This document shows positions 3,271-45,290 of a DNA stretch of 64,000 nt, one piece after another. This DNA is from Escherichia coli (GTDB lineage: Bacteria; Pseudomonadota; Gammaproteobacteria; Enterobacterales; Enterobacteriaceae), in NCBI RefSeq assembly GCF_046105845.1, contig NZ_CP151004.1. The stretch is one strand, 5' to 3'. The position numbers and the translations under genes were made by a program. How positions within the stretch are numbered: the stretch's first letter is position 1; each line of letters opens with the position of its first letter. Under the pieces are notes generated by a model. It worked only from the letters and a program-made list of their open reading frames with translations. It had not been told where the DNA came from and ran no database searches.

Positions 3271-3984
3271 TTATTTGTTTTGGAAATGTTTGTTTTTTCC
3301 CGGTAGTGATTTGTCAAAAAAGGTGATTAATCGATCACTTAATGGCGTCAGCAACACCCAGGGCAAACCGATTAATATCACGGTCATCGAACCGACAATG
3401 ATGTCAGTAAACCAGTGTGCGCCAATCATTACTCTGGGAAACGCAAAAACCACAAAAATAATAAGGGCGATAAGGCCTGCAACTTTGCCGAAATAACGCC
3501 ACATGAATGCCGAAAAAATAAGCAGCATCATACCGTGATCGCCGGGAAAGCTATCTCGTGAGGCATCTTTAGTGGGAACAGAGAGCAGTTCGCTGACGCG
3601 GTTAATATCGGTAAAAGTCAATGTTGGGCTGGCCCGTTTTACAGGAATTAATGCCTGACCCAGCTGGTTTAATACCACTGCAGTTAATAGCATGACCAGA
3701 CCAATAATCACGATACGTCGTCTGCCTGGGGCGTTTTCTTTCAGCCAGAAACTCAGCATCAACATTCCCATCGCCAGCAGTGAACAACCGTCGAAAGCGC
3801 GATTGTTGGTCAATGCAACCAGCCACAAAAAGGCCTTACTTTCGACCAGTTTCTGATTAAAGAAATAAAAAATATCCGCATCAATCGGCAACCAGAATCC
3901 ATGATTAACGGGTATATACCAGGAAAGAAACAGCGCGAGGCCGACAATATTCAACAACACTATTTGCGGCAAATTTTTAATCAT
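3271..3984 (-). CDS. lpxT: Lipid A 1-diphosphate synthase (PAP2-family phosphotransferase)
   Basis: 237 aa from ATG at 3984-3982 (MIKNLPQIVLL…); the track ORF from 4020 is over-extended at the 5' end. Multi-TM with PAP2 motifs (…PGDHG…, …GAHWFTD…). Confidence 0.85.
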   Translation of the reverse strand: MIKNLPQIVLLNIVGLALFLSWYIPVNHGFWLPIDADIFYFFNQKLVESKAFLWLVALTNNRAFDGCSLLAMGMLMLSFWLKENAPGRRRIVIIGLVMLLTAVVLNQLGQALIPVKRASPTLTFTDINRVSELLSVPTKDASRDSFPGDHGMMLLIFSAFMWRYFGKVAGLIALIIFVVFAFPRVMIGAHWFTDIIVGSMTVILIGLPWVLLTPLSDRLITFFDKSLPGKNKHFQNK

Positions 3985-4022
3985 ATTTTCTCTAATTATC
4001 TTACTGAAAAACGCAGGCAACC

Positions 4023-9342: not shown

Positions 9343-10473
9343 ATGTTCCAGTTATCCGTACAGGACATCCATCCGGGCGAAAAGGCCGGAGACAAAGAAG
9401 AGGCGATTCGTCAGGTCGCTGCGGCGCTGGTGCAGGCCGGTAATGTAGCTGAAGGCTACGTCAATGGCATGCTGGCGCGCGAACAGCAAACCTCTACGTT
9501 CCTCGGCAATGGTATTGCTATTCCACACGGCACTACCGACACCCGCGATCAGGTGCTGAAAACCGGCGTTCAGGTATTTCAGTTCCCGGAAGGCGTCACC
9601 TGGGGTGACGGCCAGGTAGCGTACGTGGCGATCGGTATTGCTGCCAGCTCGGATGAACATTTGGGCCTGCTACGCCAGCTGACCCACGTACTGAGCGATG
9701 ATTCCGTTGCTGAACAACTGAAGTCAGCAACAACAGCAGAAGAACTTCGCGCATTGCTGATGGGCGAAAAGCAGAGTGAGCAGCTGAAGCTCGACAACGA
9801 AATGCTGACGCTGGATATCGTCGCCAGCGATCTGCTGACTCTTCAGGCGCTGAACGCTGCACGTCTGAAAGAAGCGGGGGCAGTTGACGCCACTTTCGTC
9901 ACCAAAGCCATCAATGAACAACCGCTGAACCTCGGACAGGGCATCTGGCTGAGCGATAGCGCCGAAGGCAATCTGCGTAGCGCGATTGCGGTAAGCCGTG
10001 CGGCAAATGCTTTTGATGTGGACGGCGAAACGGCAGCCATGCTGGTGAGTGTGGCGATGAATGACGATCAGCCCATTGCGGTTCTTAAGCGTCTCGCTGA
10101 TTTGTTACTCGACAATAAAGCTGACCGCTTGCTGAAAGCGGATGCGGCAACGTTGCTGGCGCTGCTGACCAGCGATGATGCGCTGACCGACGACGTGTTA
10201 AGCGCGGAGTTTGTGGTGCGCAATGAACACGGCCTGCATGCTCGTCCAGGTACCATGCTGGTCAATACCATTAAACAATTTAACAGTGATATTACCGTGA
10301 CAAACCTTGATGGCACCGGCAAACCGGCAAACGGACGTAGTCTGATGAAAGTTGTGGCACTTGGCGTTAAGAAAGGTCATCGCCTACGCTTTACCGCCCA
10401 GGGTGCAGATGCTGAACAGGCGCTGAAAGCCATTGGCGACGCTATCGCTGCTGGTCTTGGGGAGGGCGCATAA
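9343..10473 (+). CDS. fruB: PTS fructose-specific multiphosphoryl transfer protein (EIIA-M-HPr-like, FPr)
   Basis: 376-aa ORF with a C-terminal HPr-like domain (…[14 protein letters not shown]…). Shine-Dalgarno gagaggag at 9331-9338. First gene of fruBKA. Confidence 0.93.
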
Positions 10474-13542: not shown

Positions 13543-14484
13543 ATGCGCGAAAAGGATTATGTCGTAATTATAGGTTCGGCGAATATTGATGTCGCCGGAT
13601 ATTCACATGAATCATTAAATTATGCGGATTCAAATCCAGGTAAAATAAAATTTACGCCTGGTGGAGTCGGGCGCAATATTGCACAAAACCTGGCGTTGCT
13701 GGGGAATAAATCCTGGCTACTGAGCGCAGTAGGCAGTGATTTTTATGGTCAATCGTTGCTAACGCAAACCAATCAATCTGGTGTTTATGTCGATAAATGC
13801 CTGATTGTGCCGGGAGAAAACACGTCGAGCTATTTATCATTACTCGATAATACCGGTGAAATGCTGGTTGCTATAAATGACATGAATATTAGCAACGCTA
13901 TTACAGCTGAATATCTCGCACAGCACCGTGAATTTATTCAAAGGGCAAAGGTCATTGTCGCGGACTGTAATATCAGTGAAGAGGCACTGGCATGGATTCT
14001 GGATAATGCCGCCAATGTACCTGTATTTGTCGATCCGGTTTCGGCATGGAAATGTGTCAAAGTGCGCGACCGTCTAAATCAGATCCACACCCTGAAGCCA
14101 AACCGCCTTGAAGCGGAAACCCTGAGTGGGATTGCTTTGTCAGGGCGTGAAGATGTGGCAAAAGTTGCTGCCTGGTTCCATCAACATGGCCTGAACCGAC
14201 TGGTATTGAGCATGGGCGGCGATGGCGTTTATTACAGCGATATCAGCGGTGAAAGTGGCTGGTCTGCGCCGATCAAAACCAATGTTATTAATGTTACCGG
14301 AGCGGGCGATGCCATGATGGCTGGACTTGCTTCGTGTTGGGTAGACGGAATGCCGTTTGCCGAATCTGTTCGTTTCGCACAGGGATGTTCGTCAATGGCG
14401 CTCTCCTGTGAATACACCAATAACCCCGATTTATCGATTGCCAACGTTATATCTTTAGTGGAGAACGCAGAATGTCTGAATTAA
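13543..14484 (+). CDS. psuK: Pseudouridine kinase (PfkB family)
   Basis: 313-aa ORF with ribokinase-like motifs (…GGVGRNIAQNLALLG…, …GAGDAMMAG…). SD gagga at 13532-13536. Confidence 0.88.
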   Translation: MREKDYVVIIGSANIDVAGYSHESLNYADSNPGKIKFTPGGVGRNIAQNLALLGNKSWLLSAVGSDFYGQSLLTQTNQSGVYVDKCLIVPGENTSSYLSLLDNTGEMLVAINDMNISNAITAEYLAQHREFIQRAKVIVADCNISEEALAWILDNAANVPVFVDPVSAWKCVKVRDRLNQIHTLKPNRLEAETLSGIALSGREDVAKVAAWFHQHGLNRLVLSMGGDGVYYSDISGESGWSAPIKTNVINVTGAGDAMMAGLASCWVDGMPFAESVRFAQGCSSMALSCEYTNNPDLSIANVISLVENAECLN

Positions 14485-42226: not shown

Positions 42227-43174
42227 ATGCGTGTGTTACTGGCTCCGATGGAGGGTGTACTCGACTCTCTGGTGCGTGAATTGCTGACCGAAGTTAACGA
42301 CTACGATCTGTGCATCACCGAGTTTGTCCGCGTGGTGGATCAACTGCTGCCGGTAAAAGTCTTTCATCGCATTTGCCCTGAACTACAAAACGCCAGCCGG
42401 ACACCATCCGGTACGCTGGTGCGCGTGCAGTTGTTAGGCCAGTTCCCACAATGGCTGGCAGAGAACGCCGCCCGTGCAGTTGAGTTAGGTTCCTGGGGCG
42501 TGGATCTCAATTGCGGCTGCCCGTCGAAAACGGTTAACGGTAGCGGCGGTGGGGCGACGTTACTCAAAGATCCTGAACTCATCTATCAGGGTGCAAAAGC
42601 GATGCGCGAAGCTGTACCGGCGCATTTGCCCGTCAGCGTAAAAGTGCGTCTGGGCTGGGACAGCGGTGAGAAGAAATTTGAAATCGCCGATGCGGTGCAA
42701 CAGGCTGGTGCTACAGAGCTGGTGGTGCATGGGCGGACGAAAGAGCAGGGTTACCGCGCGGAGCATATTGACTGGCAGGCGATTGGCGAGATTCGCCAGC
42801 GGCTGAATATTCCGGTGATTGCCAACGGTGAAATCTGGGACTGGCAGAGTGCGCAACAATGCATGACGATCAGCGGATGCGACGCAGTGATGATTGGTCG
42901 CGGGGCGCTCAATATTCCCAACCTGAGCCGGGTGGTAAAATATAACGAACCGCGAATGCCGTGGCCGGAGGTGGTTGCTTTGCTGCAAAAATATACTCGT
43001 CTGGAAAAGCAGGGCGATACCGGGTTATATCACGTAGCGCGGATTAAACAGTGGTTGAGTTATTTGCGTAAAGAATACGATGAAGCAACGGAATTATTTC
43101 AGCATGTTCGGGTGTTGAATAATTCCCATGATATTGCAAGGGCTATTCAGGCAATTGATATCGAGAAACTCTAA
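42227..43174 (+). CDS. dusC: tRNA-dihydrouridine synthase C
   Basis: 315 aa from ATG 42227 ([13 protein letters not shown]…), Dus TIM-barrel flavoenzyme; the track ORF from 42161 is 5'-extended. Confidence 0.9.
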
Positions 43175-43239
43175 GAAACCATAGTGATGTTTTTTGACAA
43201 TGTGTTAGCTCTTTATCAATAGGCCGCACGGTTGTTTGG

Positions 43240-43445
43240 TGGCGTCAAAATCGCCGAGGCGTTCCCTGAAGGCCGGGGCAGCCCACATGGATGTGGGCTG
43301 AGGGCGCGTTTTACAGGGATGTTACCTCGCGCCCGACCCGGTAGCCGTAAGGGATAAGCCGAGGGCACCGCGCAGCGGCGATTTTGTTCGCCAGAGCCCG
43401 GGGGTGCAGGGGGCGGCGGCGATTGGCCGCCCCCTGCGCGCTCCT
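43240..43445. repeat. GC-rich multi-hairpin intergenic element (unclassified)
   Basis: Outer 11-bp inverted repeat caaaatcgccg (43246-43256) / cggcgattttg (43377-43387). Internal perfect hairpins at 43279-43300, 43302-43335 and 43407-43438. Confidence 0.6.
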
Positions 43446-43546
43446 TGCGCCAGTGATTATATGAAGCAATGCACATGACAGGAGCGCAACAGGATGAGAG
43501 ACTGAAATATTCTCGTTATTTTCGGATCTGATGACATTAATTAATT

Positions 43547-43630
43547 TTAAAATATCATCTTAAATACGCCAGTCACCACCAGTAGCCCAATCAGGAAAAT
43601 AATCAATACAGCCCAGAGTATAATTTTCAT
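43547..43630 (-). CDS. yohP: 27-aa single-TM small membrane protein
   Basis: Below the 60-aa track threshold; manual reverse-strand translation from ATG 43630 gives MKIILWAVLIIFLIGLLVVTGVFKMIF*. Confidence 0.7.
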   Translation of the reverse strand: MKIILWAVLIIFLIGLLVVTGVFKMIF

Positions 43631-43853
43631 TGGCGTTCCTTTATTTGTGAGTGCTGAATAAGTATAGGAAAAAACGAAGCCCTTTGCCGCTATCCATAAA
43701 CTATTAAGATAAATCGGAAGATATCATTCACTTAGTGTATATTTTTCTGGATATGTCGTTTTATTGCCACTGATGTATTGCCACGCGAAACTAAAAAATA
43801 TATCGCAACACACGGTAATCTCCGCGCACCTTTTCTTACCTGATTATTCCCCC

Positions 43854-45290
43854 ATGAATCGTGATTCTTTTTATCCCGCCATCGCCTGTTTTCCGCTGTT
43901 ACTGATGCTGGCCGGGTGTGCGCCTATGCATGAAACCCGCCAGGCGTTAAGCCAGCACACGCCCGCTTCACAAGTTGACACCGCATTACCCACGGCGCTG
44001 AAAAATGGTTGGCCAGACAGCCAATGGTGGCTGGAGTATCACGATAATCAACTCACTTCCTTAATTAATAACGCACTACAGAACGCACCGGATATGCAGG
44101 TGGCTGAACAACGCATTCAACTGGCTGAAGCCCAGGCGAAGGCAGTTGCCACTCAGGATGGTCCGCAGCTCGACTTTTCTGCGGATATGGAGCGACAAAA
44201 AATGTCGGCAGAAGGCTTAATGGGGCCGTTTGCTCTGAACGATCCGGCCGCAGGTACGACCGGTCCGTGGTACACCAACGGTACTTTTGGCTTAACGGCG
44301 GGCTGGCATCTCGATATCTGGGGAAAGAATAGGGCGGAGGTAACTGCTCGCCTGGGAACGGTTAAAGCACGGGCGGCGGAACGCGAGCAAACCCGCCAAT
44401 TGCTGGCTGGCAGCGTAGCCCGCCTGTACTGGGAGTGGCAAACCCAGGCGGCGTTAAACACTGTCTTACAGCAAATCGAAAAAGAGCAGAACACCATTAT
44501 CGCCACCGATCGCCAGCTATATCAGAACGGGATTACTTCTTCAGTTGAAGGTGTGGAAACCGATATTAATGCCAGCAAAACCCGGCAGCAGCTCGACGAT
44601 GTCGCGGGGAAAATGAAAATTATTGAGGCACGGTTAAGCGCACTTACAAATCACCAGACAAAGGCATTGAAGCTTAATCCGGTCGCGTTGCCGAAAGTGG
44701 CAAGCCAGCTTCCTGATGAACTGGGGTACTCCTTACTGGCGCGGCGGGCAGATTTGCAGGCGGCGCACTGGTACGTTGAGTCATCGTTAAGCACTATTGA
44801 TGCGGCAAAAGCGGCATTTTATCCTGACATCAACCTGATGGCCTTCCTGCAACAGGATGCGTTGCACTTAAGCGATCTGTTCCGTCATTCCGCGCAGCAA
44901 ATGGGCGTTACGGCAGGCCTGACGCTACCCATTTTCGATAGTGGTCGTCTTAACGCCAACCTCGATATCGCAAAAGCCGAAAGCAACTTGTCTATCGCCA
45001 GCTACAACAAAGCGGTGGTTGAAGCGGTGAATGACGTGGCGCAGGCAGCCAGTCAGGTTCAGACACTGGCGGAGAAAAACCAGCATCAGGCGCAAATTGA
45101 GCGCGATGCCTTGCGTGTAGTAGGTCTTGCGCAGGCGCGCTTTAACGCGGGCATCATTGCGGGTTCCCGCGTCAGCGAAGCCAGAATCCCCGCGCTGCGT
45201 GAGCGGGCCAATGGCCTGTTATTGCAAGGGCAGTGGCTGGATGCCTCCATTCAACTCACTGGTGCGTTGGGCGGGGGTTACAAACGTTGA
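43854..45290 (+). CDS. mdtQ: Outer-membrane-factor (TolC-like) efflux lipoprotein
   Basis: 478 aa from ATG 43854 (MNRDSFYPAIACFPLLLMLAGC, lipobox LAGC); the track ORF starts at 43764. The reading frame is uninterrupted in this window. Confidence 0.85.
   Translation: MNRDSFYPAIACFPLLLMLAGCAPMHETRQALSQHTPASQVDTALPTALKNGWPDSQWWLEYHDNQLTSLINNALQNAPDMQVAEQRIQLAEAQAKAVATQDGPQLDFSADMERQKMSAEGLMGPFALNDPAAGTTGPWYTNGTFGLTAGWHLDIWGKNRAEVTARLGTVKARAAEREQTRQLLAGSVARLYWEWQTQAALNTVLQQIEKEQNTIIATDRQLYQNGITSSVEGVETDINASKTRQQLDDVAGKMKIIEARLSALTNHQTKALKLNPVALPKVASQLPDELGYSLLARRADLQAAHWYVESSLSTIDAAKAAFYPDINLMAFLQQDALHLSDLFRHSAQQMGVTAGLTLPIFDSGRLNANLDIAKAESNLSIASYNKAVVEAVNDVAQAASQVQTLAEKNQHQAQIERDALRVVGLAQARFNAGIIAGSRVSEARIPALRERANGLLLQGQWLDASIQLTGALGGGYKR

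Follow-up and report, generated by a model that had tools for sequence, protein, structure and literature searches.

The element considered here lies between dusC and yohP in a stretch of 64,000 nucleotides of Escherichia coli DNA (contig NZ_CP151004.1 of assembly GCF_046105845.1), which is called the window; its numbering is used throughout, and positions refer to the + strand unless stated otherwise. The two genes are convergent, with the stop codon of dusC (+) ending at 43174 and yohP (-) ending at 43547, and a spacer of 369 nt lies between them. The G+C content is 0.65–0.74 over 43250–43450 and 0.33–0.40 in both flanks, which agrees with the GC-rich block between these two genes that had been described in a first-pass annotation of the window. 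The block belongs almost certainly to TRIP1c, one of the copies of TRIP1, an interspersed palindromic repeat of E. coli. As an already described, catalogued repeat it is no discovery. The annotation had taken 43240–43445 as the whole element, which is too short: copies with 93–95% identity over about 270 nt and with unrelated flanks place the boundaries of the unit at ~43219/43226 and ~43491/43497. The repeat unit of 273 bp (43219–43491, identity of 93–94% to copies elsewhere) thus begins about 44 bp past the dusC stop, and diverged outer arms extend to ~43183–43519, which is nearly the whole spacer.

According to the introduction, results and discussion of Li et al. (2024, Genes 15:236, PMC10888264), TRIP1 repeats were first reported by Rudd in 1999, contain 62–65% G+C, occur in both orientations, are predicted to form a stable "double-Y" RNA fold, and mediate chromosomal rearrangements. 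The types named there are TRIP1a, between aqpZ and ybjE (lysO); TRIP1b, 41 bp past putP, with a length of 146 bp and an internal 125 bp missing; TRIP1c, with 273 bp, 43–44 bp past yohI (dusC), upstream of yohG (mdtQ) and 94% identical to TRIP1a; TRIP1d, between alx and sstT; and TRIP1e, between copA and ybaP. The element of the window was identified as TRIP1c because its position, length, G+C content, paralogous sites and the existence of a short form lacking 125 bp all fit this description. The position of the homology relative to the dusC stop, as given above, agrees with the published one, and the core has a G+C content of 0.64, within the published composition. In K-12 the copies at dusC and aqpZ share 94.1% identity over 272 nt, with 15 mismatches by which they can be told apart, and are located on the - strand (L001) and the + strand (L087), respectively. 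The K-12 copy at putP–efeU is a short form, of which positions 3856–3994 in locus L219 match only 43226–43282 and 43386–43490 of the window; another short form is present in locus L002. The 125-nt deletion (43279–43403) runs between CCGGGG direct repeats at 43273–43278 and 43398–43403.

Homologous copies with unrelated flanks were found at aqpZ–lysO, putP–efeU, copA–ybaP and asmA–yegH. The last locus is outside the five published TRIP1 types and holds a diverged member of the family, which is intact in Shigella boydii (L083:2548–2707), with a core 89% identical to that of the window copy and a 3' hairpin of different stem sequence and the same structure. The same locus was considered as the third K-12 copy and rejected, since only a 3' remnant is present there (L086:5486–5620); the third named copy is TRIP1b at putP–efeU. 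The complement of TRIP1-type copies in K-12 consists of two full copies, one short copy (TRIP1b) and the asmA–yegH remnant. The RefSeq record of K-12 contains no annotated repeat or RNA feature in any spacer examined.

In the first-pass annotation, membership in another intergenic repeat family had been suggested, which turned out to be correct, with BoxC or RSA as tentative names, which do not fit: BoxC has 56 bp and 33 copies in K-12, and RSA has 150/151 bp and 6 copies, RSA being set apart here by its description (size and count) and not by sequence. IRU, with 127 bp and 19 K-12 copies, was likewise rejected, and inspection by eye revealed no REP unit in the E. coli copy. It had also been stated that near-identical copies together with an annotated family match would reduce the element to a known repeat; both were found, and the element is therefore a known repeat. 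The recommended BLASTN count, carried out with 5,426 complete E. coli genomes, yielded the element in 5,425 of them, in 1–10 places each (median 3).

No relation to the TwoAYGGAY motif or to CsrA motifs and no cross-genus covariation are mentioned in the introduction, results or discussion of Li et al. (2024); these sections likewise contain no Klebsiella or Kluyvera copies (nor the one Citrobacter BLAST match), no asmA–yegH locus and no insertion sequence (IS) targeting a hairpin of TRIP1. As far as could be checked, the relation to TwoAYGGAY, the cross-genus covariation, the CsrA-type loops, the frequency of spacer inversion and the IS target are apparently new here.

In the structured core (43237–43395) a closing stem, P1, surrounds inner helices and two hairpins whose loops contain GGA. 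P1 is formed by 43240–43262, which holds caaaatcgccg, and 43370–43393, which holds cggcgattttg; these 11-mers, noted in the first pass as a bracket, are contained in an inverted repeat of 16 nt (43246–43261/43371–43386) with 88% complementarity. Two of the three perfect hairpins that had been placed inside the bracket are located there; the third, with a perfect 12-bp core (43406–43417/43426–43437), is part of a GC-rich hairpin at 43400–43444 and lies 3' of the bracket, with no U-tract following it on either strand. Hairpin 1 (43279–43300) has a 9-bp GC-rich stem with the tip ACAUGGAUGU and is a perfect inverted repeat of 10 bp (43279–43288/43291–43300); in the consensus fold an A-U pair (43287/43292) closes a UGGA tetraloop (43288–43291), so that AUGGAU spans 43287–43292. 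Hairpin 2 (43302–43334) consists of a 7-bp outer stem, GGGCGCG/CGCGCCC (43302–43308/43328–43334), a weak distal stem and the loop AGGGAU (43315–43320), as judged from the consensus fold and the conservation of the loop.

The RNA fold of 43236–43445 was calculated at -129.1 kcal/mol, compared with -100.0 ± 4.7 kcal/mol for 200 dinucleotide-preserving shuffles (z = -6.2), none of which was as stable. A consensus fold of 50 pairs was obtained by RNAalifold from nine copies, which originated from several E. coli loci, E. whittamii, Kluyvera, K. pneumoniae and one metagenomic contig. In this set 97.5% of the cells were paired, compared with 37–46% when the 3' partners were slid by 1–3 columns; eight pairs were changed on both sides, and in P1 compensatory changes were present in 6 of 20 pairs, with more in the larger set. 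For the latter, metagenomes were scanned for the hairpin-1 sequence and then searched with a covariance model, R1, which gives 198 bits on the window core; there were 94 matches, of which 74 were distinct, from Escherichia, Klebsiella and Kluyvera. Among these 74 copies, which are related to one another and whose alignment was fitted to R1, 95.7% of the cells were paired and 21 of 50 pairs showed compensatory changes, distributed over 145 cells, a result reached by none of 500 shuffles. The search pattern prescribed hairpin 1 save for two N positions, and these make up its varying pair. The A-U pair of this hairpin is compensatorily replaced by G-C in Klebsiella-type copies. The covariation speaks for a structured strand, one of the readings offered in the first pass, as does the homology to TwoAYGGAY described below.

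The strand which folds can be named. In the nine-copy alignment 18 G.U cells were counted versus 4 A.C cells, and the + strand folded more stably in all 61 of 61 distinct copies, with a mean difference of 8 kcal/mol. Because of the excess of G.U over A.C and the greater stability of the + strand, what is conserved is a single strand in its folded form (RNA or single-stranded DNA) and not a palindrome for binding of a protein to duplex DNA.

In a permissive scan of Rfam, 43245–43384 aligned to the full model of TwoAYGGAY (RF01731) with 30.2 bits (E = 0.017), which is under the gathering score of 43 bits; no Rfam family reached its gathering score in this region of the window. The scan recommended in the first pass thus produced a related family, at a score below the curated threshold. 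A homolog from Kluyvera, 85% identical to the window copy, reached 54.2 bits (E = 4.5e-8) and is above the gathering score; the Klebsiella copies and one metagenomic copy gave no TwoAYGGAY match at E < 1. Since the homology runs through the Kluyvera copy and the architecture is shared, the core, with its closing stem of about 20 bp, inner helices, two hairpins and conserved + strand fold, followed by a separate GC-rich hairpin, is very probably homologous to the TwoAYGGAY motif; the window copy itself is a sub-threshold relative and not a curated member. A match to AgvB (anti-GcvB small RNA) at 43464–43524 (-), which overlaps the right arm and its flank, is probably noise (22.9 versus 56 bits, E = 0.088), and weak matches to miRNA and snoRNA families in this region were dismissed as noise.

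In the original description by Weinberg et al., TwoAYGGAY has two hairpins with AYGGAY loops and a closing stem, P1, which is often very long, and it occurs in gamma-proteobacteria, Clostridia and gut metagenomes. The published alignment contains multi-copy elements of Psychromonas, some with AGGGAY loops, and the portion of it that was searched lacks six enterobacterial reference accessions, including NC_000913 of K-12. A preprint from 2025 describes a very stable and a weak hairpin in TwoAYGGAY; since the same combination is seen here, the weak distal stem of hairpin 2 is a family trait rather than a sign of decay. The long P1 (~20 bp, with compensatory changes) and the loop AUGGAU of hairpin 1 agree with the description, and hairpin 2 has a G in place of the Y in AGGGAU, a position which is A, C, G, U or absent among the copies. 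Common to both elements are, furthermore, the occurrence in several copies in some genomes, the intergenic location without fixed gene association and the gamma-proteobacterial hosts; TRIP1 differs by its second loop, by extra helices between the hairpins and P1, and by its added arms and 3' GC-rich hairpin.

Rfam has placed TwoAYGGAY in the Csr-Rsm-binding clan, and binding of CsrA was proposed for this motif by Gardner and Eldai from a motif scan. The CsrA consensus RUACARGGAUGU, obtained by SELEX (in vitro selection of ligands), has invariant ACA and GGA and loops usually of 6 nt closed by AC/GU; according to the same study, one CsrA dimer bridges sites which are 10–63 nt apart. In hairpin 2, UUACAGGGAUGU matches this consensus in 11 of 12 positions, and CCACAUGGAUGU matches it in 9 of 12. 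Both loops preserve ACA, GGA and GU. Across the copies the hairpin-2 loop reads CA-N-GGA-Y-G: its N can be any of the four nucleotides or missing, and CA, GGA and the pairs that close the loop are either retained or covary. The GGA triplets at 43289–43291 and 43317–43319 are 28 nt apart, within the bridging range; a third GGA (43351–43353) is buried in a helix which has compensatory support. The window contains three occurrences of the motif ACAKGGATGT, versus an expected 0.10, and TRIP1c holds two of them. The third, ACAGGGATGT at 14379–14388, is apparently coding and far from TRIP1c.

With the CsrA sites of CsrB, CsrC, RsmY/Z and mRNA leaders the element shares the location of GGA in hairpin loops closed by AC/GU, besides the two SELEX matches. 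CsrB holds about 18–22 CsrA sites; unlike CsrB, the element exposes two sites, is present in 1–3 core-bearing copies per genome, and its own promoter or terminator was not found. Within 42900–43900 the scanner reported no terminator-like site, and inspection of the left arms by eye showed no conserved -35/-10 elements. The only sigma-70-like site in that interval, 43531–43558 (+) with ATGACA, a spacing of 16 nt and TATCAT (10/12), lies just beyond the element, where it extends into the 3' end of yohP, a gene of the other strand. Transcription of the element would need the neighbouring genes, since no promoter of its own was found, and read-through from dusC would copy its + strand, since no terminator was detected in the spacer. 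The whole spacer is inverted between lineages, with the genes still collinear: the arrangement of the window is present in 3,315 of the 5,426 genomes and the inverted one in about 2,000 (~37–39%), including ST131 and O157:H7. In the strains with the inverted spacer, read-through from yohP would copy the same strand of the element. The RNA of the 3' untranslated region would then fold and present, at the end of a rigid stem, two CA-N-GGA-Y-G loops with a distance of 28 nt, in a geometry and with a sequence which would suit clamping by one CsrA dimer. The element could accordingly be pictured as a portable module for the docking of CsrA, with an effect in cis on the fate or the 3'-end stability of the host mRNA; it would not be a bulk sponge for CsrA, because of the 1–3 core-bearing copies per genome. 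That TRIP1c acts as an RNA of the TwoAYGGAY class which docks one CsrA dimer upon read-through is the explanation favoured here; we consider it quite possible, somewhat short of probable.

Several observations weigh against this explanation. A published table of CsrA sites in E. coli, obtained by crosslinking and immunoprecipitation with sequencing (CLIP-seq), contains no peak for dusC, yohP, aqpZ, ybjE, asmA or yegH, nor does it list one at the K-12 coordinates of the element; dusC and ybjE were without CsrA-dependent change in the same study. Little weight can be given to this negative CLIP-seq result: exact runs of 106 and 96 nt, which span both hairpins, are common to the two full K-12 copies, and short reads from them would map to several places. 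The 9-bp GC stem of hairpin 1 is longer than that of most SELEX ligands, which mostly had four or fewer contiguous pairs. In a crude survey of neighbouring genes, based on open reading frames (62 contexts, 44 of them with both neighbours called), 24 contexts were convergent, 7 co-directional with the element in sense, 11 co-directional with the element in antisense, and 2 divergent. The family strongly prefers convergent spacers, and among the co-directional ones there is no bias for sense; TRIP1a of K-12 is antisense to both of its neighbours. The lack of a sense preference and the antisense position of TRIP1a suggest that the element has no need to ride on the mRNA of a neighbour. Parts of the element have been lost in several copies: the core is missing from TRIP1b, from some aqpZ alleles and from asmA–yegH of K-12, and hairpin 1 from one further locus (L071). 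Finally, in a repeat with several copies, covariation may arise from selection on the spread of the element itself and not on a function for the host.

The last point leads to a different explanation, in which TRIP1 is a selfish or neutral palindromic repeat, similar to REP/BIME or to MITEs (a MITE-like remnant was among the first-pass readings), without function for the host; it would persist in "safe" spacers and be spread or homogenised by recombination and gene conversion, or by a mobilising enzyme which reads the folded strand, and the fold and its loops would serve that process. At the level of DNA the element has been shown to act as a recombining repeat, which inverts in place, is deleted between short direct repeats, varies in copy number and serves as a landing site for an IS. 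Besides the 1–10 places per E. coli genome, 13 places, with tandem copies, were found in one chromosome of K. pneumoniae, and at least 25 distinct flank contexts are present among 82 copies. The orientation appears to be free, as shown by the inverted dusC–yohP spacer and by the aqpZ–lysO spacer, where the element occurs in either orientation, and copies decay by internal deletion. Klebsiella-type copies form tandem arrays with periods of ~340, 476 and 653 nt (L080:2509–3195; L098:1870–3334; L106:507–1004) and carry directly 5' a REP-like unit, gccgggtggcggc...gccttacccggcctac, with weak matches to naRNA4 alongside. The published chromosomal rearrangements, the multi-copy elements of Psychromonas and the frequency of convergent contexts (24 of 44, with 2 divergent) would also be consistent with a selfish repeat.

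This explanation is not without difficulties. Neither an associated transposase nor a clean empty site or a target-site duplication was found. One site, copA–ybaP, differs between strains: it contains either a segment of 360 nt with TRIP1e (L092:2482–2840) or a segment of 727 nt with ybaQ (K-12, L091:6152–6878). This variation is an allelic replacement and not a simple insertion, and a target-site duplication is unreadable there for this reason. The terminal inverted repeats are only ~60–65% alike by eye, the arms of the element forming an imperfect inverted repeat. In 50,697 phage records the element does not occur, and matches labelled as plasmid were rejected as mislabelled chromosomes or chromosomal fragments. 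The loops closely match the motif of a host protein, CsrA, and the same loop motif is kept as far as Clostridia, which would be unexpected for an element-specific enzyme. The dusC–yohP copy, moreover, is present at ≥80% coverage in 5404 of the 5426 genomes. Taking both sides together, a purely selfish or neutral repeat is a serious but rather unlikely explanation.

The outer left arm (43183–43218) is diverged; homology between loci is weak there, the left arms being alignable. When the spacer of the window is reverse-complemented, it can be aligned to the inverted allele of E. coli E69 as far as ~43180. The right arm (43445–43519) was delimited by copy alignments; its conserved part ends with AGGAGCGCAACA at ~43491 and it is diverged beyond. 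Within it, at 43481–43484, a Shine-Dalgarno-like GGAG is followed after 9 nt by an ATG (43494); in other copies AAGGAG or CAGGAG is followed by an ATG at the same distance, which opens locus-specific mini-ORFs, with three codons in the window (within 43481–43506) and MMNQHITTS in the aqpZ–lysO copy (read from L050).

Outside of Escherichia, the recD–argA spacer of Kluyvera contains two copies in head-to-head arrangement (L041:9306–9463, -, and 9518–9672, +). One Kluyvera copy has diverged strongly, with 37 bits on R1, but P1 and two GGA loops, AUGGAU and AGGAC, are retained in it. Copies are also present in K. aerogenes, K. variicola and, by one BLAST match, Citrobacter. A scan of a genome collection with the 18-mer AAATCGCCGAGGCGTTCC yielded 77 loci, of which 70 were rejected as chance matches in GC-rich, unrelated phyla (scores of 36–48 versus 312–592 for true copies); only the Escherichia and Kluyvera loci are genuine. 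With REP/BIME, RSA, BoxC and ERIC/IRU the element has in common that it is intergenic, GC-rich, palindromic and interspersed, and the enrichment in convergent spacers is as in REPs. It is unlike these families in its unrelated sequence, its far longer, multi-domain unit and its 1–5 copies per E. coli genome, compared with hundreds of REPs.

Less probable still, and in our opinion unlikely, is a role as a REP-like module for 3' ends, in which stable hairpins would block 3'-to-5' exonucleases or would terminate or insulate the convergent transcripts of dusC and yohP, with the GGA loops being incidental. Neither dusC nor yohP has a canonical intrinsic terminator, the element holds the only strong structures of the spacer, and the family is enriched in convergent spacers, all of which would fit such a role. 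Hairpin 1 and the GC-rich hairpin are perfect palindromes, which form on either strand and would thus tolerate inversion; REPs are transcribed, and roles at the level of RNA have been proposed for them (discussion of PMC10888264). On the other hand, a U-tract follows none of the hairpins, and short forms without the core persist at putP–efeU. A simple barrier would also leave unexplained the invariant CA-N-GGA-Y-G loops, the strand asymmetry and the covarying fold of several helices.

The 86-amino-acid open reading frame on the minus strand (43216–43476), rich in Pro, Gly and Arg, is present as reported in the first pass and begins with ATG, and a few genomes carry annotations of fragments as "hypothetical protein"; that it is a gene is practically excluded, since only 21 matching clusters of 1–16 members each, without a Pfam domain, exist among 5.8 billion proteins although the DNA occurs in more than 5400 E. 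coli genomes, since indels of 125, 25 and 1 nt between copies break the frame, and since substitutions track base-pairing and not codon positions, so that its interpretation as a by-product of the palindromes was sound.

Hairpin 2 is also the target of a mobile element. Four metagenomic copies of TRIP1 are interrupted at the same base of this hairpin by an IS of 1,386 bp with 11-bp subterminal inverted repeats (for example L136:5810–7198, -; other loci are L121, L097, L130 and L213–L217). Its transposase, WP_000868863.1, is encoded by an open reading frame of 355 amino acids (annotated with 341) and scores 360 bits on NCBIfam NF033542, "IS110 family RNA-guided transposase"; a non-coding region of 233 nt lies downstream of the gene encoding the transposase. 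The IS is present in 180 of the 5,426 E. coli genomes, and the exact junction GGGAT^GTTACC was found in 174 genomes. This insertion point of an IS1111-type (IS110-family) element corresponds to 43320^43321 and is intact in the window. The left junction is identical in nine loci. Of six sampled insertions, five are in TRIP1 elements, distributed over four loci, with one constant orientation relative to the element. Like REP, which is the target of IS621, TRIP1 is thus targeted by a site-specific member of the IS110 family, and its Klebsiella copies adjoin REP-like sequence.

The non-coding region of the IS (L213:2650–2890) holds GAGGTAACA, which is the complement of the target TGTTACCTC spanning the insertion point. 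A diverged copy of the IS (96% identical; L218:2650–2900), inserted in the tnpC gene of IS66, carries GAGGTAGCA and is flanked by GCTACCTC; the guide variants read GAGGUAACA and GAGGUAGCA. This comparison of sequences suggests that guide and target have changed together, as would be expected for natural retargeting by a seekRNA or bridge RNA. ISEc11 was rejected as a candidate, its target being GTGAAAATACTG; the ends and the target of the IS were not found in the supplements of the seekRNA paper, and no name was assigned. Two strains showed further peculiarities at interrupted copies. In E. coli N3 (L213:788–1339) yohP is annotated twice in tandem beside an IS-interrupted TRIP1c, which suggests a local duplication associated with the insertion, and in E. 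coli EM10-18-28 (L214:3100–3547) the asmA–yegH spacer holds an IS-interrupted repeat, a fragment of a RelE/ParE toxin gene and a gene for a helix-turn-helix protein.

In summary, the feature is real, conserved and structured, and it is the known repeat TRIP1c; the added value lies in the link between TRIP1, TwoAYGGAY and CsrA and in the target for an RNA-guided IS. TRIP1, known since 1999, and TwoAYGGAY, known since 2010, both without known function, now look like elements of one kind. From this kinship it follows that the published idea of CsrA binding could be tested in E. coli K-12, which offers two intact copies and a natural deletion of the core (TRIP1b), with natural variants of orientation being available in other strains. 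Pipelines for RNA-seq or CLIP data which discard multi-mapping reads should miss TRIP1 loci, due to the exact runs of about 100 nt that are common to the copies. The IS provides a compact natural example of bridge RNA or seekRNA targeting of a structured repeat, with a matched change of guide and target. The most comprehensive picture, which we regard as improbable in its entirety, would be that TRIP1 is the enterobacterial branch of TwoAYGGAY and a portable CsrA-docking element, attached to the mRNA of dusC in some lineages and to that of yohP in others, whose hairpin 2 is the landing site of an RNA-guided IS. If this were true, inversion of the spacer would naturally move a post-transcriptional control element from one convergent gene to the other, and each insertion of the IS into hairpin 2 would destroy one CsrA site.

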